Shown: piece by piece, positions 40,667 to 62,546 of the stretch
How the letters are laid out: every line of letters starts with the position of its first letter
How positions within the stretch are numbered: position 1 is the first letter of the stretch
DNA from: an uncultured Chloroflexia bacterium
GTDB lineage: Bacteria; Chloroflexota; Anaerolineae; CG2-30-64-16
Direction: 5' to 3'
Length of the DNA stretch: 64,000 nucleotides
NCBI GenBank assembly: GCA_963810095.1
Contig: CAWEMM010000012.1
Span: forward strand, 288,001 to 352,000
Notes under the pieces: model-generated
Database searches by the model: none
The model's input: the letters and a program-made list of their open reading frames with translations, nothing else
Told to the model about the DNA's origin: nothing
Position numbers and translations under genes: made by a program

Positions 40667-40749
40667 CTACGGTAGAGTCGGGCGGGTTCCTAGCGGGCCG
40701 GCCAGAGGCTGCCCAGGGGCGTAGGAACCGCCACGCTGAGGAAAGCATC

Positions 40750-41994: not shown

Positions 41995-42007
41995 TAGGAG
42001 GCGCGGC

Positions 42008-42900: not shown

Positions 42901-42953
42901 GAGAAATCAGGTTTCGCCTCGGCCGAGCCGATGGTGCAGACACCTGGTATCTT
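42901..42953. repeat. Short palindromic repeat, family C (AGAAAyCAGGTTTC-like)
   Basis: GAGAAATCAGGTTTC ... GACACCTGGTATCTT, related to AAAACCAGGT...ACCTGGTTTCTT at about 56068-56103. Confidence 0.5.
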
Positions 42954-42972
42954 AATCGACTGAAAGGTTAGC

Positions 42973-43620: not shown

Positions 43621-43640
43621 ATCGGGAAGGGAGGGACTCA

Positions 43641-44561: not shown

Positions 44562-44567
44562 AGGATT

Positions 44568-44646
44568 TTCACCGCCAGGGCACAAAGCCTCCACAAAGAT
44601 CACGAAGCGACTTACAGGAGTCCTTGTGCTCTTTGTGGCTAGTGAA
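44568..44646. repeat. Intergenic palindromic repeat, family A (degenerate)
   Basis: TTCACC...GCACAAAG...CCACAAAGATCACGAAG ... CCTTGTGCTCTTTGTGGCTAGTGAA. Confidence 0.65.
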
Positions 44647-44649
44647 GAC

Positions 44650-45567
44650 CTACCCTACCAGCTTATCCAGCTTTTTGCGCGGCTCCTTGAGCGAGCGCGC
44701 GTTCCGCATCATGCCTTGCCAGGGATCGCCCACCTTATCCAGCCGGTCCCAGATGTTGCGCAGGTTGTACGTGTTCGACCGCAAGTCCGGGTCCTGTAGC
44801 TCATCCCAGGCCAACGGCGTCGCAACGGGCGCGCCAGGTCGCGGCCGCAGCGAATAGGGCGCGACGGCGGTTGCCCCGTACCCGTTGCGCACGTAGTCGA
44901 GGAACAGCCGGCCCTCGCGCTCGGCCTTGCGCATCTCGGTCGTGAGCGTGTCTGGATGCCGGTCGGCCAACAGTTGGGCGAGGTCCTTCGCAAAGTCGCG
45001 CGTCTCATCGAAGTGCGCCGAGCGGTCGAGCGGTGTAACGACGTGCAGCCCCCGCGAGCCGGTGGTCATCACGAACGGCTCGAGCCCTACCTCCTCAAGG
45101 AGTTCCCTGACCAGGAACGCGGTCGAACGCGCGACCTCGAACTCCGTCGGCGGGTCGAGGTCGAAGATCATCCGGTCCGGATAATAGAGGTTGTCGCCCC
45201 GGCTCAGCCAGATGTGCAGGGTGATCGTGTACTGGTTCGCCAGGTAGACCAGGGTCGCGGCATCGTTGGCCAGCACCTGGTCCTGGATCTCCCCGCTCTC
45301 CAGCACCTCCACCTTGGCGCTCGCGATCCAATCGGGAAAGTACTCGGGCATCTCCTTGTGGTAGAAGCCCTTGGCGCCCACGCCGTCGGTGAAACGCTGC
45401 ATCGTGACGGGATGGTCCTTCACATGCGGCAGCATGACGCGGGCAATGCGCCGGTAGTATTCGATCACTTCGCCCTTCGTGATGCCGTCCTCGGGAAACA
45501 GCACCTTGCCCAGGCTGGACAACTCCAACTCGTGTCCGTCCACCTTCTCCACCCGTTCGACGGCCAT
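44650..45567 (-). CDS. Stand-alone LigD polymerase (primase-polymerase) domain protein
   Basis: KVLFP..GITK, RFTDG, FYHK, IFDLDP, TTGSRGLHV, FLDYVRN, APYSLR..PGAPVATPL.WDEL. Confidence 0.93.
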   Translation of the reverse strand: MAVERVEKVDGHELELSSLGKVLFPEDGITKGEVIEYYRRIARVMLPHVKDHPVTMQRFTDGVGAKGFYHKEMPEYFPDWIASAKVEVLESGEIQDQVLANDAATLVYLANQYTITLHIWLSRGDNLYYPDRMIFDLDPPTEFEVARSTAFLVRELLEEVGLEPFVMTTGSRGLHVVTPLDRSAHFDETRDFAKDLAQLLADRHPDTLTTEMRKAEREGRLFLDYVRNGYGATAVAPYSLRPRPGAPVATPLAWDELQDPDLRSNTYNLRNIWDRLDKVGDPWQGMMRNARSLKEPRKKLDKLVG

Positions 45568-45600
45568 CAGCCCTCCTTATAAAGTTCCGCACGTAACGCT

Positions 45601-45684
45601 TCACCACAGAGACACCAAGACCCGAAGAGCCACGAAGCGCTACACGGACTTGGTGAGCCTTGTGTCTTGGTGTCTTCGTGGTGA
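45601..45684. repeat. Intergenic palindromic repeat, family A
   Basis: TCACCACAGAGACACCAAGAC ... GTCTTGGTGTCTTCGTGGTGA. Confidence 0.85.
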
Positions 45685-45698
45685 GCGGAGTACACGGC

Positions 45699-46349
45699 TC
45701 AGGCGTCGGGCCGGCGGCCGCCGTACAGGTTTCCTTCGTCGCCCCGATCGCCCAGTGCCCGGGTGCTCTGCGGGTCGAAGCCGGTTAGGTCTTCGATCCG
45801 CTGCCCGCTCAGCACAGACTCGGGCCGGCGGCTGGGCAGATTCGCGTCCGGGTCCGCGTGCTCGTCGTGCATCTTCTCGAGCACCCACGCACTGTCGCCG
45901 CCCGAGCGCATCAGGCTCCAGCCCCCGCGCAGCTTCTGGCCGTCGAGCCACACCTGCAGCCTTCCCTTGTCGGTTGCCTGCAGCATCGCCTGCGGATCAT
46001 GGGGGTCGTCGGCCTCGAGCAGCCGAAACGGGCCCGCATCCCACACGAGCATGGCGCCCCCGCCGTACTCACCGGCCGGATTGGCGCCCTCGAAGGTGGC
46101 CCGCTCGAGCGGATAGTCCGCGACCGGTATCGCCGCGCGCTTCGCTTCTGGGTTGGGCCAGGGAGCGTCGGGTAGGCGCCAGGAAAGAAAACTCTGGGCC
46201 ACCTCGAACCGCAGGTTGAAATGCATGTCGCCGGCCTGGTGCTGGTGCAGCACGAACATGGGCGGCTCGTTCGGATCGGCCTCGCCGCGGGCGTGGCGCT
46301 CCAGATAATCACGCAGGCCAGCGCCTGACATTGGTTCGGTCATCATCAT
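45699..46349 (-). CDS. LigD 3'-phosphoesterase (PE) domain protein, divergent active site
   Basis: FVLHQH...HFNLRFE, SW, FEG...GEYGGG.MLVWDAG, L.GQKLRG.W.L and PESVLSG. Confidence 0.85.
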   Translation of the reverse strand: MMMTEPMSGAGLRDYLERHARGEADPNEPPMFVLHQHQAGDMHFNLRFEVAQSFLSWRLPDAPWPNPEAKRAAIPVADYPLERATFEGANPAGEYGGGAMLVWDAGPFRLLEADDPHDPQAMLQATDKGRLQVWLDGQKLRGGWSLMRSGGDSAWVLEKMHDEHADPDANLPSRRPESVLSGQRIEDLTGFDPQSTRALGDRGDEGNLYGGRRPDA

Positions 46350-46700
46350 CCTCGCAATACGTTGTCGCCAGATTGCGTCTTGCTCGCCGCGGTCCCGGCA
46401 GCGGACGGCCGGCCGAAACCTGTAGCGTAGCCAAGCTGCGATGGATTAAGACGACAAGAAGGGGGGAAGTGTTCGGGGTCGTGCGAAAGATCGCTTCTCA
46501 CACCAAGGCGGATAAGTACACGCAGGGTTCCTGATGCCCCTGCGTCATCCCCCGTACCGTGGCTTATCCGGGCGAACGGGTACCAGAGCGTTGCCTTTGG
46601 GGTTCCAAGGGGCGCGGCCCGTGGTCGGGGGCGGCGGGGGCAAGAGGGCCCCCGCCAACCAGCCATTGGGCTTCAACTGGTAATTTCCCGGTGGTTGTAC

Positions 46701-47882
46701 CTAAAAGTCGAGGACGCCTGCGCCGGGCGCAGCACACACATCATAGACGTTCGTGCGGATGCCTGTTGCGGCTTCGTACCGCTCGCGCACCGCCTCGCCG
46801 AACGCCGCAACTTGCCCCTGCTCGACCAGCGCCACCATGCAGCCTCCAAACCCCCCGCCTGCCTGCCGGGCGGCAATGACACCGGGGGCGTGGCGCATGG
46901 CGCCCATCATTGCGTCCATCGCCGGCGCGCCGATCTCGTACAGGTCCCGCGCGCCCACGTACGAGTCTGCGAAGAGGCGCGCCAGGCGCACGCGGTCGCC
47001 CGCAGCCAGCGCAGGGGCCAGCGCCAGCACGCGCTCGTCCTCTTCGACGATGAACCGGCAGCGCCGCTCGACCACCGGCGACATCTCGTCGCGATGCCGG
47101 TCGAGCATCTCGCACGTCGCGTCGCGCAACGCCGTGACATGGGGGTAGTGCCGAGCGAGCACTGCTGCGCCCGCCTCGCATTGGCTGCGGCGTTCGCCGT
47201 ACTCCGTGCCGGCGAGGTTGCGGGGTGCGCACGTGTCGCAAATGACGAGAGCGATGCCGGCCGCGATCGGCGTGACGGTGTGAAAGAGGTCCCGGCAGTC
47301 GAGCAGTACCGCGCTGCCGGCCTGGCCGAGCGCCGAACTGTACTGGTCGAGAATCCCGCAGTTGACGCCCACGAAGCGGTTCTCCGCCCGCTGACCCAAG
47401 ATCGCGAGCTGCACCGGGTCCAACTCCAGATCCGAGGTGGCCTGCATTGCCACGCCGGCTGCCATTTCGAGCGCGGCCGACGAACTGAGTCCACTGCCGA
47501 ACGGGATCGTACTGTGGACCAGCGCGTCGAACCCCCGCAGATGGTAGCCCGCCTCCTGCAGCGCCCACGCCATTCCGCGCACGTAGTTGCTCCACGGCGC
47601 TCCCGGGTCGTGCTGGATCGCGTCAAGGCTGAACTCGGCGCGGCCCGGCAGGTTCAGCGACTGAACGGCAATGATCCGGTCACGTCGCGGCCGCACGGCC
47701 AACCAGGTGTCCCGATCCACGGTCGAGGTCATCACATAACCCAGGTTGTAGTCCGTGTGGCTGCCCATCAGGTCGACACGGCCGGGCGCGCGCACCCACA
47801 GCATGGGCTCGGCGCCGTAACGCCGCTCAAACTCGCAGGAAATGAACTCTCTCCGGGCCCCGTCCGTTAGTCGTCCGTCCAA
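46701..47882 (-). CDS. Galactokinase-family (GHMP) sugar kinase with a variant substrate motif
   Basis: APGRVDLMGSHTDYN (canonical GalK is GRVNLIGEHTDYN), PFGSGLSSSAA, CGILDQ and GGGFGGC. TTG start after GGAGG. Confidence 0.9.
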   Translation of the reverse strand: MDGRLTDGARREFISCEFERRYGAEPMLWVRAPGRVDLMGSHTDYNLGYVMTSTVDRDTWLAVRPRRDRIIAVQSLNLPGRAEFSLDAIQHDPGAPWSNYVRGMAWALQEAGYHLRGFDALVHSTIPFGSGLSSSAALEMAAGVAMQATSDLELDPVQLAILGQRAENRFVGVNCGILDQYSSALGQAGSAVLLDCRDLFHTVTPIAAGIALVICDTCAPRNLAGTEYGERRSQCEAGAAVLARHYPHVTALRDATCEMLDRHRDEMSPVVERRCRFIVEEDERVLALAPALAAGDRVRLARLFADSYVGARDLYEIGAPAMDAMMGAMRHAPGVIAARQAGGGFGGCMVALVEQGQVAAFGEAVRERYEAATGIRTNVYDVCAAPGAGVLDF

Positions 47883-47917
47883 CTGGATATCCTCCGCCTG
47901 AAACTACGCTCGACCGT

Positions 47918-47981
47918 AACCACCAAAAGACGAAGACCCGAGGAGGATCCGCACGGGATAAGTGATCCCTTGTGTCTTCAC
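47918..47981. repeat. Intergenic repeat, family A (degenerate)
   Basis: AACCACCAAAAGACGAAGAC ... CCTTGTGTCTTC. Confidence 0.45.
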
Positions 47982-48002
47982 GCCTGCAAGCCCACGAACC
48001 CG

Positions 48003-49036
48003 TCAAGATCCCGTCGCCCGGAAGGCATCCAGCAAAGCATCGACGTTGGCCAACGGGATATCGGCCATCATCCGGTGCGAAGGCGCGAGCACGAAGCCGG
48101 TTCCGGCCGGCGCCAGGTCGGCAATCGCGGCGGCCACAGCCCGGCGCACGTCTGCCGGCGAGCCATGGGGCAGGACCGTCTGGGTGGAGATCCCACCGTA
48201 ATACGCCAACTGGTTGTCGAAGTCGCGGCGCAACGCGGCATGGCTTAGCACTTCGGGCTGCACGGGGTTCAGGACGGTCAGCCCGATTTCGACCAGGTCG
48301 GGCAAGATGGGCTGGATTTGGCCGTCCGAGTGCATGATGACGGGCAGCCCACGCTCGCGGAACGGCGCAAAGAGTCGTGCGAGCCGGGGCTTGATGAAGC
48401 GCCGCCAGGCCGCCGGCGAGAACAAGAGCCCTTCTGCGCGCCGTAGTCGTCGCCGAAGTAGCCGCCGTCGACGCCGGCCCGCAGAAAACGCTCGATCAGC
48501 ACGAGTTGGATTTCGGTGATCCGATCGAGCAAGGCCGCGGCATATGCCGGATCTTGCGCCATGTCGATGAGGAACTGCTCAAAGCCGCGGAGCGACCAGG
48601 CGCGCTCGAAGAGCGCGAAGCCGAGGTTCGGGACGACGAAGTACTCACTCCCTTGCGCGGCCAGGGTCTGCTGCGCAGCCGCCAGCAGCCCGGGGGCGTT
48701 CGGATCAGGCCATGCGTAGGCGTCGAGGTCCCTGTCGTCGGCGAGCGGGCTGTGCCGGATGAAATAGCCCTCTTCGACGGTGTCGTGCCCGGCGCCCCAC
48801 CAGTCGTACCGGACGAGGCGGTCAGCGCTGTAACGAGGGGCGTGATTGACGTCGACCCGGACGAGATGGTTGTCGAGGAACGCAGGGAGCGCGGGTACTG
48901 ACACACGGTAATGCGCAGCCAGCACCTGGGCCATGGCCGCTGTGGCATTGATTTGCGTTGGAAGGCGATCCACGGGCGCATGTTCGAATGCAGCCTTCAT
49001 CCGCGCCTTGTGGGTCATGGCGGTCACCCCTGGCAT
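48003..49036 (-). CDS. Uroporphyrinogen decarboxylase (URO-D)/MtaA-CmuA-like TIM-barrel protein, frameshift near 48435
   Basis: LFERAWSLRGFEQFLIDM, GDDYGAQKG, FSP..WRRFIKP, MHSDG, LNPVQPE, GGISTQ..LP.GSP and FVLAPSH. Confidence 0.85.
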
Positions 49037-49063
49037 GGTGGGCTCCTTGTTCTCGAGGAAAGC

Positions 49064-50067
49064 TCAGCGACGGCCGGTGGACTTGCGCGTCACCAGGCTG
49101 GTCGAGACGACGCGTCGTTCGGGTTCGCGGCCCGCAAGCAGGCTGAGCAGCATATCCATTGCAAGCACGCCGATTTCGTAACGCGGCAGCGCGACGGTGG
49201 TGAGGGGTGGATCGAACTGCGATGCGAGCCAGATGTCGTCGAGCCCGACAATCGAGAGATCTCCGGGACGCGCAGCCCGTCTGAGCGGGCACCCGAGAGG
49301 ACGCCCAGCGCCATCAAGTCGTTTGCGCAGAACACCGCCGTCGGCGCACGGCGCTGCTCAGCGAGGAGTTCCCAGGCCTTGCGGCCGCCCTCGATGGTGA
49401 GGTCAGCAGTCGCAATCAGGACGTCTTCAGGGCAAATGCCCCCGCTCGCGAGCCCTTTGAGGAATGCGTCGCGGCGGTCACGGCTCGTCTTCAGGTTCAG
49501 CGGCCCGGCGACGTGCGCAAACCTCCGGTGCCCGAAGCTTAGCAGGAGTCCCGCGGCCTCTTCGATCCCCGGCGCAAAGTCGACTTCGATCGTGCTGACG
49601 CCGGGCATGCGGCGGCCGGCCCAGTCAAGTACGATGGCAGCCGTGTTGCTGGCGACAAGCTCGTCGAGCCAATCGTCGGCCACGCCGCTCGACATCACCA
49701 GCACCCCGTCGGCCCGGCGGTCGACCAGCGAGCGAATCAGCCCCAACCCGCGAGCCGGGTCATAATTGGTGTTCGCCAGGAGGACATTGTAGCCCGCGGC
49801 AATCGCCCGGTCTTCCACGCCGTGGATGACGTCCCCATAGAACGGGTTGGCGACATCCGAGACCAGCATGCCGACCGTGAACGTGTGATGCGAGCTGAGA
49901 CTCCGCGCGACGGCGCTCGGGCGAAAGCCGAGGTCTCGGATCGCGTCCTCTACCCGCTGGCGTGTTCCGGGCCGAATGTGGGTAAACCGTCCACTCAGCA
50001 CCCGGCTGACGGTTGCCTTGGACACGCCCGCCGCGGCTGCGACGTCGTCAATAGTTGGTACAGGCAT
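49064..50067 (-). CDS. LacI-family regulator, frameshift near 49255
   Basis: TIDDVAAAAGVSKATVSRVL, ANPFY, PTAVFCANDLMALG, with the C-terminus SIVGLDD...PPLTTV in the shifted frame. Confidence 0.92.
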
Positions 50068-50070
50068 TTG

Positions 50071-50084
50071 TGAAACCGGTTTCA
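50071..50084. promoter_or_regulatory. LacI operator
   Basis: Perfect palindrome TGAAACCGGTTTCA, 3 nt upstream of the LacI start codon. Confidence 0.8.
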
Positions 50085-50144
50085 AGATTTAGGGTGAGGA
50101 TACCAGTGAGACAGCTGAATGTCAAATCGGCTATAATAGATGTC

Positions 50145-50426
50145 ATGTCAGAGCCTAATTCGACCGAGAGTGACGTGGCCCGCTGGCACAGGCTGAGCGG
50201 GCTGCCCGACAACGTGACCGACGACGGCGACGTGGTAGCGCCAGACCCGGGCCGCCGAACGCAATCCGAGAAGGCGCAGCTGCGTGCAGCTATCGCGCGC
50301 GTGCGTGACGAGCACCCTTCTGTCGAGGCGCGAAACCTGGCCCGCCTCGCCGCGTCGTACCTGCTGGCGGGCGATATCGAGACGGCTCGGCGCTACCTTG
50401 ATCGCGCCCTGATGCTGCGAGAATAG
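50145..50426 (+). CDS. Small hypothetical protein with a C-terminal TPR-like helix pair, probably leaderless
   Basis: TATAAT at 50132-50137, 7 nt before ATG. LAASYLLAGDIETARRYLDRAL resembles a TPR motif. Confidence 0.6.
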   Translation: MSEPNSTESDVARWHRLSGLPDNVTDDGDVVAPDPGRRTQSEKAQLRAAIARVRDEHPSVEARNLARLAASYLLAGDIETARRYLDRALMLRE

Positions 50427-50551
50427 CACTCGCCCTTCGCGCCGCTAGGACAAAAGGAGTACGACACCTCGCAGGTCCTTGCCGTTTTGCCCTCCCCAGA
50501 CGCGTCCTCTGTCCGATGACCGCCCCGGCCCATCGTGCTACCATATCCGAT

Positions 50552-51172
50552 ATGGCACTGTACGAAGAAAAGGCCCTGATTGATGCTGCCCAGGCGGGCG
50601 ATCTGACAGCCTTTAATGAGCTGGTCACGAACTATCAAGACCAGGCTTTCAGCGTTGCCTACCGGCTGTTGAGCGACTCTGAAGCGGCTGCCGATGCCGT
50701 GCAAGAGAGCTTCCTCAAGGTCTACCGGCGTATTGACCAGTACCGGGGCGGCTCGTTCCGGGCATGGGTGCTGCGCATTGTGACGAACAGCTGCTATGAC
50801 ACGTTGCGCGTGAGCAAGCGCCACTATGCCAGCCGGCTCGACAGCGAGACCGTGCCGCCCGACCGCGACCGGCGCTTGAGCGACCCGCGTTCCTCGCCGC
50901 ACGATCACGCGGTCCGCGGCGAACTCAACTTGCTCCTTAGGCGCGCAATCATGCAGTTGCCCCCCGGCCAACGGATCGTGCTGGTGATGTGCGATATCGA
51001 GGGGTTCGAATACCACGAGGTCGCCGACATGACCGGGCTCGCGCTGGGCACAGTCAAGTCGCGGTTGAGCCGCGCTCGGACGAAAGTCCGCGGGGTGCTC
51101 GTGCAAAAGGGTTTTTCCCCAAGCGTTCCCCCTCACAGGGATCACGTCGTCGCATACTCGACGTCTGTCTGA
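50552..51172 (+). CDS. ECF RNA polymerase sigma factor
   Basis: Region 2 GDLTAFNELV...AADAVQESFLK...FRAWVLRI.TN and region 4 LPPGQR...EG.EY.EVA...GTVKSRLSRAR. Confidence 0.95.
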   Translation: MALYEEKALIDAAQAGDLTAFNELVTNYQDQAFSVAYRLLSDSEAAADAVQESFLKVYRRIDQYRGGSFRAWVLRIVTNSCYDTLRVSKRHYASRLDSETVPPDRDRRLSDPRSSPHDHAVRGELNLLLRRAIMQLPPGQRIVLVMCDIEGFEYHEVADMTGLALGTVKSRLSRARTKVRGVLVQKGFSPSVPPHRDHVVAYSTSV

Positions 51173-51192
51173 GACCGTTAACTTAGCCCCTC

Positions 51193-51221
51193 TTGCCCCA
51201 ACGCCGGTGCATGCGTATAAT
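51193..51221 (+). promoter_or_regulatory. Sigma70-type promoter for the SBP-sensor operon
   Basis: TTGCCC-N17-TATAAT. Confidence 0.65.
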
Positions 51222-51307
51222 GGTGCGTATTGAACCACAAAAGGCGGGTAAGACTTGCACAAGCCTGGCGCAAAGCAGTCCCTCCGCTGACAGGTAGGTA
51301 GAGGCCA

Positions 51308-52678
51308 ATGGCATCACGAATGTCACGACGTGTCTTCTTGCGAGTAGCTGGCAGCCTCGCAGGCGCTGCAGCGTTGGCTGCTTGTGCACCGGCAGCAAAA
51401 CAGGGTGCGGGACCCCATGGCAGCCCGGTCGTCCAGCTGGTGTACCAGGACTGGCGGACGGACTACTTCGCGGCGATGGCACAACGGATGTTGGAAGAGT
51501 TTCACGCCAAGCACCCGAATATCCACGTCTTCTACACGCCCGACCCTCCGGACCTCACGGACAAGATGATGACGGACTTTCAGGCTGAAAGTGCGCCGGA
51601 CGTGTTCGCGGGGTGCTGTGACTTCTTTCCGATCTGGGCGCAAAACGGTTACCTGCTCGACCTGCGGCCATACGTCCAGGCCGAGCTCAAGCCAGAGGAT
51701 CTCAACGATTGGGACGGCGCGCAGTACCGGTCGCTCCAGCTGCGAGACGGGACTCAATACGGACTGCCCAAGTACCACGGCGCGCTCGCGCTTTACTACA
51801 ACAAGGACTTGTTCGACCAGTTCAAGGTGCCCTATCCCGAGTCATCCTGGACGCACTTCGACTATCAGACGGCCGTAACCAAATTCGTGCAGCCGCGGAG
51901 CGATGGGGCGCAAAGCCAAATATGGGGCAGCATGTTCGACGTGAGCTGGGACCGCATCCAGGCTCATGTCAACGGTTGGGGCGGCCATTTCGTCGATCCG
52001 AACGACCCGAAGAAGAGCTTCATCGGCCGGGCCCCCGCGCTTGACGCGATGCAGTGGCTGCGAAACCGGATGTGGGAAGACCATGCTATGGCCAGCCGCC
52101 TGGACGTGCAGAACCTCAGCGTGACGGAGGCGTTCCAGCGCGGCCGCCTCGCCATGGTCGAAGACGGATCATGGTCGCTCAAGACTATCCTGGATAACGC
52201 GAAGTTCCGGGTGGGGGTGGCCGTCTTCCCGGCCGGCCCCGCGGGCCGGGTTACGATCGGCACGACGGATGGCTTTGGCATTTACAAGGGCACTCGCTAC
52301 CCGGAGGCAGCCTGGGAATTCATGAAGTTCCTGGTCAGCTCGCGTTACGGCCGCGCGATGTCACAGGCCCACCTGCTCCAGCCGGCGCGCGCCAGCCTTG
52401 TCGATAGCTGGATTGCGGACGTTCGGGAACAGTATCCCGAAAAGGCGAAGGAGATGGACCTGGGCGCGTTCGCGCAAGGGCATCTGCAGGGCTTCAGCGT
52501 GACCCCCGAGATATTCGAGAAGCAGGAGGAAGCGCGGCAGCTGGCCTCAAGCGCGTGGGAACAGATTTTCACCCTGGGACGCAAGCCGGTTTCCTACATG
52601 CGCGAGATATCCGACCAGATCGAGGCGGCCCAGGCGGCCCCACAGAAGGCCAAGGAGGGGGGCGGCAGTGGGAGCTAA
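51308..52678 (+). CDS. Family-1 extracellular solute-binding lipoprotein with Tat signal; no cognate permease nearby
   Basis: SRRVFL...LAAC signal, F..KHPNI.V, APDV, YGLP, LYYNKDLF, F..GRLAM..DGSW and AAWEFMKFL. Confidence 0.92.
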   Translation: MASRMSRRVFLRVAGSLAGAAALAACAPAAKQGAGPHGSPVVQLVYQDWRTDYFAAMAQRMLEEFHAKHPNIHVFYTPDPPDLTDKMMTDFQAESAPDVFAGCCDFFPIWAQNGYLLDLRPYVQAELKPEDLNDWDGAQYRSLQLRDGTQYGLPKYHGALALYYNKDLFDQFKVPYPESSWTHFDYQTAVTKFVQPRSDGAQSQIWGSMFDVSWDRIQAHVNGWGGHFVDPNDPKKSFIGRAPALDAMQWLRNRMWEDHAMASRLDVQNLSVTEAFQRGRLAMVEDGSWSLKTILDNAKFRVGVAVFPAGPAGRVTIGTTDGFGIYKGTRYPEAAWEFMKFLVSSRYGRAMSQAHLLQPARASLVDSWIADVREQYPEKAKEMDLGAFAQGHLQGFSVTPEIFEKQEEARQLASSAWEQIFTLGRKPVSYMREISDQIEAAQAAPQKAKEGGGSGS

Positions 52679-54441
52679 GGGCGTCTGGCGCCGTTGGCGG
52701 GCTGTGATTATTGCCAGCGCAGTCCTGCTGACGCTGGTCGGTCTGCTGGCCGGCGCGCTGTTCGCTCAGTCATCCTACCGGGCCGCCGCGGCCCAGTCCA
52801 TCATGCAGCGAGACCGCCAGGTCGCCCTGCTGACTGCCGTTCGCCTGAGCGACGAGTTGGAGAAGCTGGCCGGCGAGCTGGAACCCACCGCGCGGGCCCA
52901 GAGCCTGGTTCTTGGGCTGACCGACAGGCAGCGCCTGGCCCTGCGGGGTCAGAGCGAGCGCCTAAGCGTATTCGACGGCGGGGTTATCTTAATGGACAGC
53001 ACCGGGCGGGTGCGCGCGACTGTGCCCGAACGCTGGGACATCATGAGCTCGGACTGGTCGAATCAGGAGTTCTTCAGGAACATGCTGGTCGGCCAGCCGC
53101 CCGCACAGTACTTCTCGTCGATTCTTAACGTCGGGCCGGATAACTCGCCGGTGGTGGTGGTCAGCGTTCCCGTGTTGGGTGACAACGGGGAGCTGGCCGG
53201 CGTGCTCGCAGGGCTCTTCCGCCTGGGCGAGTCGCGCATTCAGCGCGTTTTATGCCAGCATCGTCCGGCTGCGGCTGCTGGGAAGCGGGAACACCTTCAT
53301 CGTCGACAAGGCCGGCCACATCATCTACGACTCGGGCTATCAGCGCACCGGACAGACGATCGACTTATCAGCCGTGAAGGCGGCGGCATCTGCGGCGGAC
53401 CCCCGGCCCAGCCTCGACGCAGAAGGGAATGAGGTCGTCTATTCCATTGCACCGGTGCCCGGCACAGACTGGTCATTGGTCACCGAGACCGATTGGGTCG
53501 AAGCGATGGCCCCGGTCCAGCGGTTCGGCACGGGCATCATCGTCCTGCTGGCGCTCGGCATGGTTGTTCCCACCGTGGGCGTGGCCTTGCTCGCCCGCGG
53601 CCAGCGATCGGCTGTAGGCGACGCGGACCAGGCGGCGGTCGAGGCGCGGGTGGGAAAGGCTATGCGTGACCGGCTCCTGCCGCATTTCACCCCTATGGTG
53701 GGCGGATGGGAAGTGGCCGCGCACCACCAACCCGCAGCAAATGGGGCAACGGCCCGCGACTTGTACGATTTCATGCTGCTGCCCGACGGCCGCCTGATGA
53801 TTTCGCTCGCCACAGTGGCCGACCAGGGCCTCTCGGCCGTGCACTTGATGACCACCGCCCGCGCGGCATTCCGGACCGCCGCCTGCCGCACGCAGTCGGC
53901 CGGCCAGGCGATGTCGCTGTGTAACAACCTGCTGTGTCCCGATGTCGGGCCCAGCGCGGCGATCACGTCGCTCTTTGCGCTGCTCGATCCCATGTCAGGG
54001 CGCCTGCAAGTTGCGAACGCGGGCTTCTGTGCGCCGTTCCGCTGGGTCGAGGGCGAGCTGATCGAGATGCGCGAGGGACCCGACTTTCTGGGCCAGTCGC
54101 TCGACGTGGAATTCGATCACGATGATGTGCTGGTGGGGCCGGGAGATACGGTCATCTTCTACAGCCCGGGCGCGCTGGGCGTGCGGCCTGAGACCGGCGA
54201 CCCGTTCGGTCCCGAGCGCGTGCGGCGGGTGTTGAATACGACGGGTGCCATGACAGCGCAGGCCATCGTGGAAGCGCTGCGGATGGACCTGGTCGAGTTC
54301 GCCGATGCGCGCTCTCGGCGGCAACTGGACATTACGTTCCTGGCGCTTTCGCGGCCGGCGGGCGCCGCACCGTCGCAGAAGCCTAAGCGCTCGCTGCGCG
54401 ACGAGTTGCGGGCACTGGGCGAAACAGACACGGACCTGTAG
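52668..54441 (+). CDS. Membrane sensor with extracytoplasmic Cache domain and SpoIIE/PP2C-like domain with degenerate metal ligands; frameshift near 53245
   Basis: TM1, then Cache motifs DWSNQEFF, VVVVSVPV, FIVDKAGHIIY and VPGTDWSLV, then TM2. Cytoplasmic part has RLLP, DLYDF, LDP..G.L.VANAG, L.PGD...FYS.G, GDPFG.ER and DIT. Confidence 0.85.
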
Positions 54442-54443
54442 CC

Positions 54444-56063
54444 ATGCGCACGCGTGCCCAAGTTCTCGAGCGCATCAGCCGGATCCTGACCCTGGCGGCC
54501 TTTGGGGTTGCGACGCTGAGCGTGATCGTCGCGCCCATGCTGGCGCTGTCCTGGTCCAACCGCCCCTTTCCCGGCTTCCTGATGGATCAGAACCTGGTTG
54601 CGACAGATCAGGGGGGCCAGGGCTGGCCCGGGCGCGCTGCCGGGATCAGTTTCCCTCAAAGGGTTACGCGCATCGGCGGGAGTGGCGTCGCCAACGACGC
54701 CGAGTATGTCGCCGCGCTCAAGGCGCTGGAGGTGGGCGACGTCGCGTCCATCTCGACGACCTCCCGCGACGGCAACAGCCGCTACTTCCCCTCGGTCGGC
54801 CTGATCGCCTTCCCGCGCACCGACCTCCTGCGGCTTTTTTGGATGCCCTACCTGATGGGCATCGCTTATCTGAGCATTGGGGCATGGATCTACCGCGCCC
54901 GCGGCGCCACGCCGCCGGGCCGCGCCCTCGCCTTTTTCTGCTTTGCCGCGGCTGTGGCCCAAGCCCTGTTTTTCGACATTTCTTCGACGCATGTCGGAAC
55001 CCCTATTTGGGCAATTGCGATCGCAGCGCTCGGCGGCTCGCTGCTGAGCCTCGCCATGCGGTTCCCGCAGGAGGCGCGCATCGTGCAACGCTTCCCCGGC
55101 CTACTCGGCGTGCCCTACCTGGTGTCGATCGTCATTGGGGTTTGGGCGGCCGTCTCCCTGTACGACACGGCTCACCCGTGGGAGTACCTCGTCGCGCGCG
55201 ACGTATCCTACCGGTACACGGGGATTGGCGGCATCCTGTTCCTGGGCACCATGTTCTTCCGCGCATTCCAGGGTCGCGAAGCGACGGTCCGAAGGCAGGC
55301 CCGCATCGTCCTCCTCGGCAGTGCGATCGCCTTCCTTCCGATCATCATCTGGATCATGACACCGGTTTTTGGCTTGCGACTGCACTTCGAGCCCGCACTG
55401 TACATGCCGTGGCTGGTCATCTTCCCGTTTAGCGTGGCTATTGCCATCTTCCGCTACCGCTTGCTCGAGATGGACGCCATCGTCAACCGGACCATCATGT
55501 GGGGCATGCTGACCGCGGTGCTCGCCGGACTGATCAGCGTCAGCATCACGGTGCTGCAGAAGATCTTCCAGGCCGCGACAGGCGAGAAGAGCGATGTGGC
55601 GGTGGTCCTGACTTCATTGATCCTGGTATCTGTGTTTACGCCCGTCAAGACACGCCTCCAGGCATTCCTCGACCGCACCTTCAAGGACTCGCCCGAGCAC
55701 ATCAAGACGCTGCGCGAGTTCGGCGGCGAGGTCCGGTCCTACGTCCAGATGAGCGATCGCATGCTGATGACCAAGCGGCTGCTCGACGAAGCCGCGACGG
55801 GCATGGGGGCTCAGTGCGGCGCGATCACGATGACCGAGAACGGCAACGGCCGGCTGGAGACGCTGCATACGTTCGGTAAGTGGCGCGGCGAGGCGTGGGT
55901 GGCGGCGCCGCTGGAGTATGACGGGAAACGCTTCGGTCTCCTGCTCCTTGGCCCTCGGGAAGGGCTGCGTCCGTACACTCGCGAGGAGTTCGCGGCCCTC
56001 CAGGGCGCCGCCAGCGAGGTCGCACACGCACTCGCGGTGGACAAGACCGAGCGAGGCCACTAG
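54444..56063 (+). CDS. Polytopic membrane sensor-like protein (PDZ-like loop, multiple TM helices, GAF-like domain) without transmitter domain
   Basis: RPFPGFL and a PDZ-like segment, TM bundle ending AIFRYRLLEMD.IVNRT, and GAF-like PLEYDGKRFGLLLLGPR...Y..EE. The stop follows immediately. Confidence 0.8.
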   Translation: MRTRAQVLERISRILTLAAFGVATLSVIVAPMLALSWSNRPFPGFLMDQNLVATDQGGQGWPGRAAGISFPQRVTRIGGSGVANDAEYVAALKALEVGDVASISTTSRDGNSRYFPSVGLIAFPRTDLLRLFWMPYLMGIAYLSIGAWIYRARGATPPGRALAFFCFAAAVAQALFFDISSTHVGTPIWAIAIAALGGSLLSLAMRFPQEARIVQRFPGLLGVPYLVSIVIGVWAAVSLYDTAHPWEYLVARDVSYRYTGIGGILFLGTMFFRAFQGREATVRRQARIVLLGSAIAFLPIIIWIMTPVFGLRLHFEPALYMPWLVIFPFSVAIAIFRYRLLEMDAIVNRTIMWGMLTAVLAGLISVSITVLQKIFQAATGEKSDVAVVLTSLILVSVFTPVKTRLQAFLDRTFKDSPEHIKTLREFGGEVRSYVQMSDRMLMTKRLLDEAATGMGAQCGAITMTENGNGRLETLHTFGKWRGEAWVAAPLEYDGKRFGLLLLGPREGLRPYTREEFAALQGAASEVAHALAVDKTERGH

Positions 56064-56310
56064 AAACAAAAACCAGGTCTCCTCCGGGATACCTGGTTTC
56101 TTTGTGGTCAGCGACCCGACTAATTAGGACCCTGATTGAACGGATCGGACTGATTATCACGATCTTTGCCAAAGGACAGTGCAGATTAGTTCAATCAGTT
56201 GTATCGGCGTCCCATTTTAGATCAGTCTAAGTACAAACAAAGTGAAACTGCTGGATGCCGGCGCTCCTTCGACTTCGCTCCGTCAGGGGCCGCAGTCGAA
56301 GGACGCCGGG
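56064..56310. repeat. Mosaic of palindromic repeats between convergent genes
   Basis: AAACCAGGT...ACCTGGTTT hairpin, family-B copy at about 56125-56212 with its own inverted arm, and CCTTCGACT...AGTCGAAGG hairpin at about 56266-56302. Confidence 0.7.
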
Positions 56311-56338
56311 ACATCGCGCACTTTCTCCTTGGTTGTCC

Positions 56339-58701
56339 TTAGCGCAGCACCACGGTGACCTCAACCTGTGACTCGGCGAAGGGCACGACGTCGCCCGCGA
56401 TGGGTTGGCCGTTAACCTCAAGCGACACCGCGTTCCCCGGACCCTCCCGAACCACCCGGATTACGTAAAGCACGCCTCGGAAGACGCGGCGGGCGGTGAA
56501 GCCAGGCCAAGCGGAGGGAATGACCGGCGCGACACGCAGCCCGCGGTAGGTGGGGCGGATGCCGAGGATCCACTGGGTCGCGGCGACGTAGGTCCAGGCC
56601 GCCGTGCCGGTAAGCCACGAGTTGCGCCCCCTACCCGCATGCTGGTGTTCAGGGGCCGCGATATTCTGGCAGTAGACGTACGGCTCGGTGAGCAGCGTAT
56701 CCGCATCCGTCCGGGCGAGGGGCAGAATCTGGCGGTAATACTGATAGGCCAGCTCGCCCTTGCCAAGCTGGGCCGCAGCAACGACGGCCCAGGAGTTCGC
56801 GTGGCAGAAAATACCGCCGTTCTCCTTCACTCCCGGCGGATAGGTGGTCGTGCCGCGCACCCGCTCATCATAGCCGGCGTAGGCCGGCGCCATGAGGCGC
56901 AGCCCGTACTGGCAGTTGAGCTGGTCATGGGCGGCGGCCATGCCCTGCTCGGCGCGCACGCGGTCCAGCTCGCCGATGACGGCCCAGGTCTGCGGGTTGA
57001 GGCTGATACGGTGCTGTTCCGCCGCGGCCACGCCGACCGGAGCGCCCGCATCGTCGTAGGCCCGCAGATAATACCCGCCATCCCAACCGTGCTGCTCCAC
57101 AGCGGCGGCCATCTCCCGGTAGGCGCCGGCAAGCCGCTCGGCATCTGCCGTCCGGCCGAGGTGCGCGGCGAGCTCGGAGAAATCGAGCGCCGCCCGGCAG
57201 AACTGCTGCCCCGTCCACACGCTCTCGGCCCGCCCACTGCCGTGGTCGAGGTTCATCGTGTCGTCCCAGTCGGCGAACCCGAGGCGGGGCAGCCCGTGCG
57301 GCCCAAGGTGCTCGAGCGTGAACGCCACCGCCCGCTCCATGTGCGCCCACACCGGCTCTTCACCCGCGTCCTGGTAAGGCAGCCCCTCGTCAAGGAATCC
57401 GAAGTCGCCGGTCTCCTTCAGATAGCTGCACGTCGCAATCACCAGCCATAGGTGGTCGTCGCTAAACCACTGCGGCCACTGGGGGAACTCGCCTGCAAGG
57501 CCCGGCCCGCCTTCGCCCGTCAGCGGGAACACCTGGTGCCAGGCATGACCGCCGGCGAACTGGAGCTGCCACAGCATCCGCAGCACCCCCTTGGCATGCT
57601 CGGGCGCGTTATGGACCGTGCCCAGCGTGTCCTGCGCCGAGTCGCGCGTGCCCATGCCTCGGCCCAGTCCCGTGTCATAGCCGGAGGCGAAACGAGACCA
57701 GAACAGGTTGGCTCGGCACTGGATGGGGTTCCAGACGTTCACCATCGCCTGCATCTCGGCATCGGGCAACTCGACGGTGAACGCGTCGAGGTAGCGGTCC
57801 CAATCCGTGCCAAGCGCAGCATAGGCGTCGCCAACAGCTTGCTTTTCGCTGTAGCGCCCTACTGCCACCGGGATCGCCGCCGGCTCGTCGGTCACGCCGA
57901 GGATGTAGATGATTTCTCGCTCCTCGCCCGGGTCCAACTCCCACCTGTGCACCAGGCACCCGATATTGTTGCCGCGGGCGCGAGGGAATTGCCCGCCCTG
58001 CCGGCCTCGACGACCTGGGGGTTCGCTAGGCTGCGGCCGCGGCCAACGAACGCCTCCCGGTCGGTCTCAAACCCGCTGTACGGCTCGGAGGCGCCCAGGA
58101 AGCTGCGGGTGGGCCGGAAGATTGCGCCCGCCGCCAGATGGCACGGCCCGGCCTCAGAGAACATGATCTGCTGGGCCCAATCGAGGTTTTGCTGGTCCGT
58201 GATGGCGTCCCAGTACCCGAACTCGGCATACGAGAAGGCCGCCAGCCGCCGGGTCCGGTCTGAGAGGTTGCGTAAGCGCAGCACCCACAGCTCGCACGCC
58301 GCGCCGGCGGGCTGGTCGGGCGGGACGAAGTACAGGAGATCCGCACGGATGCCCCCGTACTCGCTGCCGATGCGGGTATAGCCCGCGCCGTGGCGGGACT
58401 CGTACGCGTCAAGCCGCACCTGCGGCATCGGCTGCCACGTGGGGCTCCAGTAGGCGCCAGAGTCGCGGTCGCGGAGGTAAATGTAGCGGCCGGGTTGGTC
58501 GGCGGGGATCGAGTTGTAACGGTAGCGGGTCACCCGGCGGTTGCGCGGGTCGCGATCGAACGAGTAGCCACCCGCGGTGTTGGAGATGATCCCGCCGTAG
58601 CCGCCCTGCCCCAGATAGTTCAGCCACGGCGTAGGGGTGTCGGGCCGGGTAATCACATATTCGCGGCGCGCCGCGTCATAGTAGCCGTAGGGATTTGACA
58701 T
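56339..58701 (-). CDS. GH94 glycoside phosphorylase (chitobiose-phosphorylase-like), frameshift near 57960
   Basis: REYVIT.PDTPTPWLNYLG, GRGMGTRDSAQD, FSDDHLWL, ADWDD, GVKENGGIFCH, EPYVYCQ and WLTGTAAW. Confidence 0.9.
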
Positions 58702-58778
58702 CGGAGTCCTCGGAGGGCGCTACGGCTTGCGCGATGCAGTCTTCAGACTCGTCTGACATCGCGCAAGTCGCGGTCGGG

Positions 58779-61255
58779 CTATTTTAGGACGACGCGAACG
58801 CTCACTTCGCTGCCCGGTGTGGCGAACGGGACGATATCCCCGGCAAGGGGCCGGCCGTCGACGGTGAGCAGCGCATGGTTGCCCGGCCCTTCACGCTCCA
58901 CGGTAATGTGGTACGCTGCGCCCCGGCAGACCCGCTCGGCCGTGAAGCCCGACCATCAGGCGGGATGACCGGCGCGACACGGAGGCCCGCATGCTCGGGC
59001 CGGATACCCAGAATCCACTGCGTGATCGCCACGTAGTTCCACGCTGCGGTGCCGCTGAGCCACGAGTTCTTGGCCTCGCCGTGCACGCCCGCTCCTTGCG
59101 CGGGTACTGCATCGCGACCCGCAATCATCTGCGCGTACACGTAAGGCTCGCAGCGGTGCAGATCGCTGATCCCTTCCCGGGCGGAGGGGTTGATGCGCAG
59201 GTAATAGTCGAACGCGGCCGCGCCGTTGCCCAGCTTCGCCTCGCCAATCATGATCCACGGGTTCGTGTGGCAGAAGATACCAGCGTTTTCCTTGTATCCG
59301 GGGGGATACGTCGAGATTTCGCCAAGGTGCAGGTAATACTGCGAATAGGCCGGCTGCTGCAGGACGATGCCGTGAGGGGTGGCCAGGCGCTCGGCCACCG
59401 AGTCGAGGGCCTGCCGCGCTCGGCCGTCCGCCATGCCGATGCCGGCCATGACGCACATGCCCTGCGGCTCGATGAAGATCTGGCCTTCCTCGTTCCAGTG
59501 GGACCCGATGGGCCGGCTGAAGTTGTCGTAGGCCCGGCGGAACCAGGCGCCGTCCCAACCGGCCTGCTCCACAACCGCCGTCATGGTCCTCCCCGCTGCC
59601 CGATAGCCGGCGGCCTCGTCCGCCTTGCCACAAACCTCGGCCACCTGCGCCATTTCGTCGCTGGCCAGGACGAACAAGCCGGCGATGAACACGGACTCGG
59701 CAGTGATCCCGTCCTGGTTCGTGGTGGTTTGGAAGGACTCGCCCGGCGTGGTGGAAAAGCAGTTGAGGTTAAGGCAGTCGTTCCAGTCTGCCCGGCCAAT
59801 CAGGGGCAGGCGGTGCGGGCCAAGCCGTTCGAGCGTGTAGCCCATGCTGCGCTGCAAATGCTCGTAAAGCGGCATTTCGGTGCCGGGCTCGTTGTCGTAC
59901 GGGACCAGCTCGTCGAGGATCGTGAGGTCGCCGGTTTCCTTCAAGTAGGCGGCCACCCCGAGCACGAGCCAAAGCGGGTCGTCGTTGAAATTCGTGCCCA
60001 CCAGGTCGTTCCCGCGCTTGGTCAGCGGCTGGTACTGGTGATAAGCGCCGCCCGAGGGCAGCTGCGTCGCCGCCAGGTCGATGATGCGCTCGCGCGCCCG
60101 CTCGGGGATCATGTGCACGAACCCGAGTAGGTCCTGGTTCGAGTCGCGGAAGCCCATGCCGCGGCCGACGCCCGACTCATAGAAAGAGGCCGAACGCGAC
60201 ATGTTGAACGTGATCATGCATTGGTATGCGTTCCAGATGTCGACCGACCGGTTGGTGTGTTCGTCCGGTGTATGCACCTGGAACTTGCCGAGGAGTTCGT
60301 CCCAGTAGCCGCGCAGCGCCTCAAACGCAGTGCGTACGGCTTGCGGGTCAAGAAACTGCTGCAGCAGCGGCTTTACGCGGCGCTTGTTGATCGTCTGGCT
60401 GCCCGGCGGATCAAACTTATCCTCCTGCGGGTTCTCCATGTAGCCGAGCACGAAGATGACGACGCGGCTCTCGCCCGGCGCCAGCGTCAGGCGAACCCGG
60501 TGCGAGCCCACGGGCGCCCACCCGTACGCAACGGAGTTCCCGGCCGCACCCCTCTCCACAGCTTGCGGGTTATCCCAACCCCGGTACGGTCCCAGGAAGG
60601 CCTCGCGCTGCGTGTCAAACCCGGCCACGGGCTCGGAGCAGGCAAAATAGGCGAAATGATCGCGGCGCTCACGGTACTCGGTCTTGTGGTAGATGACGCC
60701 GTCATCCACCTCGACCTGGCCGGTGGAGAAGTTGCGCTGGAAGTTCGTCCCGTCGTCCCATGCGTCCCACAGGCAGAACTCGATGGCGGAAAACACGGAG
60801 AGTTCCGCGGGAGTCGCGCGCTCGTTGCTCAGCGTGAGCTGCCAGACCTCCAGGTTCTGATTCAGCGGCACAAAGTAGAGCGTCTCGGCTCGAATCCCGC
60901 CCGACTTGGAGCCAATGACCGTGTACCCCATGCCGTGGCGGCAAGTATAGTCCTCGACCGGGGTCCGCGTCGGCTGCCAGGATGGCGACCAGGCCGCGCT
61001 CTGGGTGCCGTTTGCGTCGGGCGCATCGTCGCGGATGTACAGGTAGCGTCCGCCGGTATCGAATGGGACGTTATTGTAGCGATAGCGCGTCAGCCGGCGC
61101 AGCCGGGCATCGCGATAGAAAGAATAACCGCCGGCCGTGTTAGAGATGAGACCGAAATATGCCTGGCTGCCGAGGTAGTTGATCCAGGGCAAGGGGGTGT
61201 CGGGCTGCGTGATGACGTATTCACGGCGAGCATCGTCGAAGTATCCGTAGCGCAT
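58779..61255 (-). CDS. GH94 cellobiose phosphorylase-like protein, frameshift near 58955
   Basis: MRYGYFDD, SRSASFYESGVGRGMGFRDSNQD, FNDDPLWL, GRADWNDCLNLNCFS, GYKENAGIFCH and EAKNSWLSGTAAW. Confidence 0.93.
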
Positions 61256-61392
61256 ATCTACCTCGTTTCGGTTCCTTTACGACAGACCCCAGCGCGTACC
61301 GCGATCACGAGGCGAGAAAAGCCGCGTTTCGCGCCGTGCGGCGCGTAGGTCGCATCCTCGTGCCCGGGCAAGTTCGCACTGAGCCGTCTATG

Positions 61393-62445: not shown

Positions 62446-62546
62446 CAGATTTCACACGGTAGATAACAGCGCTCTCAGAAACAGGCACATATGAAACACA
62501 GCCGCGGCGCCAACGGCCGGCATTCTTGGCAAGCTACCAGGCAACC

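Follow-up and report, generated by a model that had tools for sequence, protein, structure and literature searches.

What can a receptor signal through when the domain in its output position has the fold of a phosphatase and has lost most of the residues that hold the catalytic metals? The question is raised by a gene cassette in a 64,000-nucleotide stretch of DNA (the window; G000:C12:288001-352000) from an uncultured Chloroflexia bacterium (assembly GCA_963810095.1, contig CAWEMM010000012.1; genome G000, 6.1 Mb in 16 contigs). Gene 1 of the cassette encodes an orphan solute-binding protein (SBP), gene 2 a dCache-transmembrane-SpoIIE (PP2C) protein and gene 3 a PDZ-like, multi-transmembrane protein ending in a GAF domain. 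A first-pass annotation, made from the nucleotide sequence alone, had interpreted the three products as a tripartite receptor that signals through protein-protein contact, possibly controlling a sigma factor encoded upstream. Signalling by contact is still the best reading, given the loss of metal ligands, the conservation of the trio and the SpoIIE fusions found among relatives of gene 3; the link to the sigma factor has not survived. On balance, we think it probable that the cassette is a conserved three-gene extracytoplasmic sensing unit of Anaerolineae, in which a pseudophosphatase receptor signals by binding.

The three-gene cassette

The cassette occupies the forward strand, with the SBP gene at 51308-52678, gene 2 between 52668 and 54441 and gene 3 at 54444-56063. 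The GTG start codon of gene 2 (52668) overlaps the TAA stop codon of the SBP gene (52676-52678), and its own TAG stop codon (54439-54441) is separated by only two nucleotides from the ATG of gene 3 (54444). The tight coupling of three genes described at first pass is therefore real, except that gene 2 is not one open frame in the window.

Conservation of the arrangement was assessed with five window proteins, searched by tblastn against the loci of relatives. The order SBP, gene 2, gene 3 is found in all ten assessable genome loci, which represent four genera: six loci from this genus (G000, G001, G002, G004, G005 and G007) and four from three other genera of the same family (G012, G442, G444 and G445). 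A scan of metagenomes by alignment of gene 3 provided 80 further loci, 43 of them with a near full-length gene 3. In all 41 assessable cases, gene 3 is immediately preceded by gene 2 on the same strand; the remaining two loci contain only 6 and 361 nt of upstream sequence. Where the metagenome loci extend far enough, the SBP gene precedes gene 2 in 24 out of 26, and the two exceptions, L047 and L048, look like a single lineage. The genes flanking the trio vary by genus, with GH94 phosphorylases in this genus and an M28 peptidase, an ABC exporter, a sulfotransferase, a radical-SAM enzyme or a PstS system in others. The three genes make up a tightly linked unit that is conserved in Anaerolineae. 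Their co-occurrence elsewhere, which the earlier interpretation presupposed, is borne out; of the four genes that it had grouped together, the trio is conserved and the extracytoplasmic function (ECF) sigma factor is not part of the unit.

In the window, gene 2 appears as two overlapping open reading frames (ORFs) in different frames, frame A (52668-53432) and frame B (53179-54441). Frame A contains the N-terminal transmembrane helix and the N-terminal half of the dCache domain, and frame B its C-terminal half, a second transmembrane helix, a long linker helix and the SpoIIE-like domain, followed by a C-terminal tail ending in TDL. The switch is at 53241: residues 15-211 of the G007 orthologue align by tblastn with 52665-53240 in frame 3, and residues 212-610 with 53242-54438 in frame 1, leaving one surplus base. 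With this base set aside, the first part of the gene spans 52668-53240 (placed by the dCache_1 profile and tblastn) and the second 53242-54441 (Pfam and structure model); frame A then continues into frame B at a junction where the orthologues, 566-629 aa when intact, are continuous. Logan contigs were available for four public runs from one study. Base 53241 is left out in both contigs that cover it (runs X1 and X4, depth 3.6 and 2.7), the other two runs having no coverage at this position. Run X1 is among the runs with at least 99% likeness; the runs may come from the source sample and are hence not independent biology, but they still speak directly against the extra base. Within 15 kb, four further genes also shift frame with respect to their orthologues (tblastn, window 46700-61300), namely a URO-D-like gene (near 48430), a LacI gene (near 49265) and two GH94 genes (near 57960 and 58964). 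As the base is missing from both covering contigs and four nearby genes have similar shifts, the split is most likely an assembly error and gene 2 whole in nature; the assembly seems to carry many uncorrected single-base indels. Elsewhere in the window, PUCC, ABC-2 and GH65 genes likewise appear as split ORFs. The frameshift had escaped the first-pass annotation, as had the PDZ-like domain of gene 3 and a conserved small ORF upstream of the cassette.

The degenerate PP2C domain of gene 2

Intact gene 2 orthologues match dCache_1 (PF02743) with 52.4-81.3 bits over profile positions 12-240; in the window the frameshift divides this match into segments of 30.7 bits (profile positions 65-153) and 26.2 bits (162-239), for a gathering score of 45. 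The SpoIIE domain (PF07228) matches profile positions 1-191 with 82.8 bits (cut-off 25), compared with 84-135 bits in the orthologues. According to the accessible text of two studies, the ligands of Mn1 in SpoIIE are D628, D746 and D795, and those of Mn2 are D628, the carbonyl of G629 and D610 (PMC3517971, PMC5468089). The corresponding motifs were placed by pairwise and profile alignments to solved relatives. The ARDLYD motif of the window aligns with GGDxYD; ATVADQG with GDVVGHG of Rv1364c, ADVSGHG of Pseudomonas aeruginosa RssB and VDCAGHG of SiaA; FYSPG with YTDG (Rv1364c), FSDG and STDG; and QLDIT with DDVT (Rv1364c), DDIT and DDMT. Sthe_0969 is also among the solved relatives whose matching motifs align with the last three. 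The Asp of the DD pair taken as equivalent to D795 was chosen by alignment with DDVT and DDIT in solved relatives. Read in this way, the columns equivalent to D610, D628, D746 and D795 contain Asp, Thr, Pro and Leu, and gene 2 of the window lacks the set of four Asp that goes with catalytic competence. The motifs pointed out earlier are thus where a canonical PP2C domain would have them, and the suspected loss of metal-binding Asp holds after proper alignment. Canonical relatives, too, usually have an acidic residue at the VADQG position, so this Asp is no substitute ligand.

The loss is not particular to the window. Throughout this genus the four columns read D/T/P/L or D/T/P/Q, and the G005 protein also lacks the Asp that follows. 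In the other genera they read N/D/E/D (G444 and G445), D/E/N/D (G442) and D/D/D/D (G012, canonical). An exhaustive phmmer search over 1.84 billion representatives gave 34,681 matches, the best 150 of which were analysed; those beginning within the Cache half, mostly 545-600 aa, were counted as having the same architecture, and sequences with at least one of the four columns changed as degenerate. Among these best 150, the Cache-transmembrane-SpoIIE architecture accounts for 53, of which 39 are degenerate, 4 canonical and 10 incomplete, while the 97 of other architectures, matched in the SpoIIE domain only, comprise 82 canonical, 9 degenerate and 6 incomplete sequences. The operon-linked metagenome copies of gene 2 (n = 41) follow the former pattern, with 32 degenerate, 3 canonical and 6 incomplete. 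The replacements are highly varied: Thr, Glu, Arg, Ser, Gln or His in one column; Pro, Arg, Ala or Ser in another; and Pro, Leu, Glu, Arg and others in a third.

Despite its altered metal site, the domain has kept its fold. The AlphaFold2 (AF2) model of gene 2 from 53242 on, calculated with a 44-row alignment, has a mean predicted local distance difference test score (pLDDT) of 86.7, rising above 90 across the PP2C part. A single unbroken helix (85-145) leaves the Cache domain at its end, crosses the membrane and connects to the PP2C domain. Foldseek relates the model to Rv1364c (E 2.3e-12), SiaA (TMt 0.77), RsbX (0.77) and SpoIIE (5mqh, 0.70), as well as to P. aeruginosa RssB and Sthe_0969; the PP2C beta-sandwich is present. 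For linker, PP2C domain and tail together, dN/dS values (Nei-Gojobori) are 0.10 between G444 and G445 (dS 0.38) and 0.16 between G007 and G004 (dS 1.0), similar to those of the Cache region (0.07 and 0.18, respectively). The degenerate PP2C domain is under purifying selection and is still a working part of the protein. In a quickly built tree of 64 PP2C domains the canonical sequences cluster (3 label changes) and the degenerate lineages are long-branched; with 30 of 60 inner branches unresolved and several long-branch warnings, the tree gives no count of independent losses.

The C-terminal tail of gene 2 (54397-54441) is kept in part of the family, as …LRDELRALGETDTDL in this genus and …ADTEIDL in G444 and G445; gene 2 C-termini with the tail are those of L011, L012, L013, L014, L027 and L028, while G012, G442 and most other representatives lack it. 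In appearance the tail is like a C-terminal peptide ligand. We considered it as a ligand for the PDZ-like domain of gene 3 and abandoned the idea: most representatives do not have the tail, and the PDZ-like domain, situated between the first and second transmembrane helices, would face the other side of the membrane from the tail, provided that the N-terminus is inside.

The solute-binding lipoprotein and the membrane GAF protein

The SBP is of the carbohydrate (CUT1/MalE-like) type, with Pfam matches to SBP_bac_1 (118 bits) and SBP_bac_8 (92 bits) and weak NCBIfam matches to MalE and GanS. Its N-terminus contains one hydrophobic segment ending in a lipobox-like LAAC, a lipoprotein-type signal. 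Orthologues are 55-81% identical and are encoded directly upstream of gene 2 in every assessable genome locus. No permease or ATPase gene is found beside the SBP gene in the window cassette or in related loci, apart from an unrelated PstS-type system in L015, and its description as an SBP without transporter partners therefore extends to the relatives. Linkage of an SBP gene to a signalling gene and not to transporter genes fits SBP-dependent receptor systems. Binding of the SBP C-terminus by the PDZ-like domain of gene 3 was also considered and dropped, the C-termini of the SBPs not being conserved.

The AF2 model of the 539-residue gene 3 protein (mean pLDDT 82.8) consists of an N-terminal transmembrane helix, a beta-rich domain (residues ~40-121), a helical region (125-412, about 9-10 transmembrane helices) and an alpha/beta domain (415-539), with no output domain behind it. 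The domain assignments rest on VIA-align and on weaker Foldseek rows, the whole model giving no Foldseek match at E ≤ 0.001. Residues 411-539 have the GAF fold, aligning with 3cit (Z 13.5, 124 aa, root mean square deviation 2.9) and with GAF-B of DevS (Z 13.1) in VIA-align. In Pfam, GAF is matched with only 17.5 bits (cut-off 22.4), over no more than the C-terminal third of the profile; several homologues have precomputed GAF matches. The transmembrane protein with a GAF domain described at first pass, ending right after that domain, is thus confirmed by fold. Residues 129-341 match seven-helix transmembrane (7TM) bundles (VIA-align, Z 11-12), which may reflect only a common helical arrangement, and the protein has no Pfam match to 5TMR-LYT. 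About 90 residues align weakly with the PDZ domains of HtrA and DegS (Foldseek; 7l71, TMt 0.61, E ~0.02). The window protein has no Pfam PDZ match; the distant relatives L021 and L022 have PDZ_2 and PDZ_6 matches just below the cut-offs, and PDZ matches in 10-61% of the members of atlas clusters provide a lead only.

One explanation for a membrane GAF protein that stops where a kinase might begin is truncation. A search among 8,000 scored candidates gave 225 homologues at E ≤ 0.001, and the 120 listed are 45-88% identical to gene 3, most of them 531-596 aa long, with a few shorter fragments and two longer forms. By precomputed Pfam matches none of these 120 contains a kinase domain, nor does the window protein. 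The stand-alone form of about 540 aa is the norm, so gene 3 is not a private truncation, and its reading as a truncated kinase was rejected, kinases occurring only among relatives that are 27-32% identical. Just two of the 120, P0015 and P0093, contain an extra output-type domain. P0093 (732 aa) is gene 3 fused to a receiver domain, matching the receiver (REC) gene that follows gene 3 in L047. P0015 (883 aa), SpoIIE followed by gene 3, was not accepted as a true fusion; it looks like a read-through from gene 2 into gene 3 and, because these genes lie in different frames, is probably an indel artefact.

More distant relatives within the phylum, 27-32% identical over residues 10-435, are matched in 39 of 401 genomes at E ≤ 1e-20; a search of genome contigs with the single gene 3 protein had given only three close relatives. 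These distant proteins include PDZ-TM-GAF-SpoIIE forms (TM, transmembrane) of 816 and 822 aa with a canonical active site, a PDZ-TM-4xGAF-HisKA-HATPase protein of 1326 aa and a TM-GAF-PAS-cyclase of 924 aa. That the PDZ-TM-GAF module is found fused to SpoIIE is our chief reason for thinking that gene 3 acts on the PP2C-like domain of gene 2.

Proposed signalling by binding and its alternatives

With the metal ligands lost and gene 3 not truncated, signalling by protein contact is the most economical reading. The membrane-anchored SBP would capture an extracellular ligand, probably an oligosaccharide, and the loaded SBP would dock on the dCache domain of gene 2, as analogy with known receptors and the strict adjacency of the two genes suggest. 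From there the signal would travel via the long continuous transmembrane-linker helix into the PP2C-fold domain. Since the Asp residues holding Mn are lost in most members, this domain would act as a pseudophosphatase, that is, as a conformational or binding module presumably devoid of activity. The gene 3 protein, which is observed to co-occur with the other two, would be an obligate co-receptor, its GAF domain most likely contacting the PP2C-like domain or the linker in trans, in line with the fusions. The output would be the binding or sequestration of a protein target encoded elsewhere, for which STAS/RsbW-type partner-switching proteins appear to be the best class. A more specific formulation, which we hold only tentatively, is that the family is a large clade, not described before, of transmembrane dCache-PP2C pseudophosphatase receptors in Chloroflexota. 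Each would share an operon with an orphan sugar-type SBP and a PDZ-7TM-GAF co-receptor, and the resulting complex, devoid of enzymatic output, would capture or release a cytoplasmic protein under control of the ligand, for instance a phospho-STAS anti-anti-sigma factor or a soluble kinase.

The 64-kb window contains no STAS, RsbW-like or anti-sigma gene. On another contig of the same genome (L032:3643-5807, G000:C7), a canonical SpoIIE-HATPase_c_2 fusion is followed by a STAS gene; this protein, RsbU-RsbW-like and of the Rv1364c-type architecture (SpoIIE 155 bits), is the closest SpoIIE paralogue in G000, so parts for partner switching exist in this organism. The locus-level hint comes from L047 (2-6578), the only locus tying a gene 2-gene 3 pair to a classical partner-switching module: a canonical SpoIIE gene (164 bits) is followed by an RsbW-like HATPase_c_2 gene, two STAS genes, a REC-like ORF (assigned by eye, without a Pfam match), gene 2, gene 3 and a REC gene. 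L047 has no SBP gene, and the ligand columns of its gene 2 read D, Q, R and Q.

Several observations weigh against signalling by binding, or against parts of it. All four Asp are kept in a minority of members (G012, L039, L040, L072, P0128 and P0136), so the lack of catalytic output proposed at first pass is not universal; dephosphorylation could be what the family did ancestrally and perhaps often still does. Metal might still be bound after some of the changes, for example Asp to Glu. The columns were read from an 11-sequence profile, with which some degenerate calls in very divergent sequences may be misaligned. The hint at partner switching depends on L047, whose arrangement of gene 2 and gene 3 without an SBP gene is shared by the near-identical L048. 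The sugar context, which bears on the SBP ligand (GH94, GH130, galactokinase, LacI), is found at the genus level only. Finally, in 4 of 16 other metagenome loci a PAS/GAF-HisKA_3-HATPase kinase without transmembrane helices is encoded convergently, right after gene 3.

These kinases, all on the minus strand (L037:7732-9540, L038:2872-5295, L042:4324-6276 and L046:4942-6939), are the reason to consider that the pseudophosphatase and GAF domains form a docking platform through which the complex recruits and controls a soluble partner with catalytic activity, encoded nearby or elsewhere, for instance a cytoplasmic PAS/GAF-HisKA_3 histidine kinase, much as GlnH and GlnX control the soluble kinase PknG. 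A HisKA_3 kinase is also a neighbour of a distant gene 3 relative in G277, and there is a precedent in GlnH/GlnX/PknG, described in the accessible text of a review as containing a non-catalytic membrane transducer (PMC8050422). However, neither the window nor the genome loci of the four genera contain such a kinase close to the cassette; the four kinase loci may be one sub-lineage, and a convergent orientation gives no operon link. We regard both the docking platform and the recruitment of such a partner as unlikely. L037 also contains, upstream, a gene for a NarL-type response regulator.

A little less likely again is that gene 2 is an active PP2C enzyme with a non-canonical metal site, such as one combining the retained first Asp with that of VADQG and the second Asp of LDIT; the cassette would then amount to a Ser/Thr phosphatase of the ordinary kind, stimulated by an SBP, with a STAS-type or other phosphoprotein as its substrate. 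The intact fold, the fully canonical orthologues and the STAS and RsbW-like genes beside the L047 pair all agree with this, and both the Asp equivalent to D610 and the second Asp of the DD pair are kept in 29 of 43 complete members. A working alternative site would, however, be expected to show a conserved pattern of replacement, and the Mn1 columns, Thr, Pro and Leu here, are Arg, Pro, His, Gln and others elsewhere. The acidic residue of VADQG, being usual in canonical relatives, is not compensatory, and the Pfam SpoIIE score, 118-135 bits among the more canonical orthologues, is down to 83-85 bits in this genus.

The ECF-type sigma factor gene (50516-51172, forward strand) matches the Sigma70_r2, r4_2 and ECF models in Pfam, and NCBIfam only at the superfamily level. 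As had been noted at first pass, no anti-sigma factor is adjacent, neither zf-HC2 nor any other anti-sigma model matching among its neighbours. Control of this sigma factor by direct binding to the tripartite receptor would follow the precedent of RssB, a PP2C pseudophosphatase that binds sigma S, and the gene, without an anti-sigma factor, is directly upstream of the cassette in G000, G001, G004 and G007. These are, however, only four of the seven genus-level loci; the gene is missing from G002, G005 and L035 and from all the loci examined in other genera, and the best matches in G002 and G005 are just 52-55% identical and located elsewhere in the genome. One of the 43 metagenome loci, L036, has a sigma gene nearby, likely by coincidence, on the opposite strand to gene 3. 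The stretch L036:8249-9836 (minus strand), ~660 nt downstream of gene 3, encodes an ECF sigma factor 32% identical to that of the window together with its own zf-HC2 anti-sigma factor. The sigma factor is a genus-level neighbour and not a conserved member of the cassette, and its control by the receptor is very improbable.

The transcription signals agree with this. A promoter scan found three promoter-like sites in 6.6 kb where 0.8 were expected, one of them the sigma-70-type TTGCCC-N17-TATAAT element already seen at first pass, at 51193-51221 before the SBP gene. The element recurs as TTGCnn-N17-TATAAT in six of the seven genus-level loci, with or without a neighbouring sigma gene, which makes the cassette a sigma-70-type transcription unit of its own.

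The last alternative, that the genes are decaying remnants of a former phosphatase system, is suggested by the split gene 2 and the lost catalytic residues and is already contradicted by the absence of the extra base from both covering contigs, the similar shifts in four neighbouring genes, the intact orthologues, the dN/dS values (0.10-0.16) and the retention of the operon across dozens of loci, which leave it next to no likelihood.

Upstream of the sigma gene, at 50145-50426, a small forward-strand ORF encodes 93 aa with a single weak TPR-like motif. A promoter-like GAGACA-18-TATAAT (50108-50137) ends 8 nt before its ATG. There are 260 homologues of 51-163 aa, including products 70-77% identical in L011, L012, L013, L014, L016 and L035 (tblastn), and all TPR matches are below the Pfam cut-offs. 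The ORF precedes the cassette in all genus-level loci; the sigma gene lies in between in some, and in the sigma-less G002, G005 and L035 the ORF abuts the SBP gene directly. Further out, the cassette is surrounded by a glycan-utilisation region (36300-47900 and 56300-63700) with GH65 fragments, an ABC sugar permease, DUF624, a GH130 mannooligosaccharide phosphorylase, a galactokinase, two LacI regulators, two GH94 phosphorylases and a beta-mannosidase-like gene. Genes for a LigD primase-polymerase and a phosphoesterase are located at 44650-46349.

Signalling by binding can be set against systems that are better known. SBP-stimulated receptors, as covered by the accessible text of a 2021 review (Matilla et al., PMC8050422), comprise chemoreceptors, sensor kinases, GGDEF/EAL proteins and GlnH/GlnX/PknG; in that text SpoIIE and PP2C do not occur and "phosphatase" is found in one general mention. 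The same text describes LuxP/LuxQ, ChvE/VirA, HptA/HptS and NspS/MbaA, in which, as in the cassette, the SBP gene is beside that of a dCache-type receptor and not beside transporter genes, and the SBPs known to signal include members of SBP_bac_1 and SBP_bac_8, the families of the cassette SBP. The receptors described there end in a histidine kinase, a chemoreceptor domain or GGDEF/EAL, whereas that of the cassette ends in a PP2C fold mostly without its ligands and is always accompanied by a third membrane protein. GlnH/GlnX/PknG is likewise tripartite, with an SBP that signals via a membrane protein lacking a catalytic domain (PMC8050422, accessible text); GlnX, however, has sensor domains of the four-helix-bundle type and shares an operon with its catalytic partner PknG, while the cassette has no catalytic partner and is built from unrelated domains (dCache, PP2C-like, PDZ and GAF).

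Escherichia coli RssB is a PP2C-like pseudophosphatase without the catalytic Asp and an adaptor for sigma S (PMC6546054, accessible text). It shares with gene 2 the bacterial PPM/PP2C fold and the loss of catalytic Asp, and it works by protein binding with its switch-helix region retained (same source); it differs in being soluble, driven by a receiver domain and dedicated to delivering sigma S to ClpXP, gene 2 being a transmembrane dCache receptor in Chloroflexota. E. coli RssB was not among the sequence or fold matches of gene 2, whereas the active P. aeruginosa homologue was. With RsbU, SpoIIE and SiaA, gene 2 has in common the Pfam family (PF07228), the fold, a long helix from sensor to PP2C domain and, in the related locus L047, adjoining RsbW-like and STAS genes. 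Those proteins keep the equivalents of D610, D628, D746 and D795 and are usually encoded beside their STAS and kinase partners; gene 2 of the window reads D, T, P and L in these columns and is without a STAS or kinase neighbour there. Gene 3 resembles LytS/BtsS-type kinases in its polytopic membrane domain followed by a cytoplasmic GAF domain, and differs from them in the extra extracytoplasmic PDZ-like domain, the lack of a 5TMR-LYT match and the lack of a kinase. In XylFII-LytS, in the portion of the source available, an orphan SBP is the ligand-delivery subunit; in the cassette the SBP is coupled, by gene overlap, to the Cache protein instead.

In the available portions of domain censuses, dCache-SpoIIE appears only as the mention of an architecture. 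In the literature outside subscription journals we found no earlier account of such a family of degenerate dCache-PP2C receptors, or of an operon combining one with an SBP and a PDZ-TM-GAF protein, and the only bacterial PP2C pseudophosphatase found there was E. coli RssB. On the best reading, the cassette is a type of SBP-dependent receptor in which a pseudophosphatase takes the place of the output domain and a second sensor protein is obligate.

Should the more specific formulation, held tentatively above, be true, RssB would have a membrane-bound counterpart, and no pseudoenzyme receptor driven by an SBP would precede this one. The cassette also raises the question of whether SBP-dependent signalling reaches PP2C and partner-switching pathways, which are absent from the accessible text of the 2021 review (PMC8050422). 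The locus is in addition a reminder that, in metagenome-assembled genomes from long reads, single-base indels can disguise one real receptor as two genes. The cassette lets the integration of two separately encoded sensor modules, SBP-dCache and PDZ-7TM-GAF, be studied. Bacterial signalling pseudoenzymes are barely charted, and here is a receptor family in which, over dozens of lineages, the PP2C fold has been kept and the metal site scrambled: a natural system for asking what role a dead phosphatase domain has in a receptor, with the few canonical orthologues as built-in active controls.

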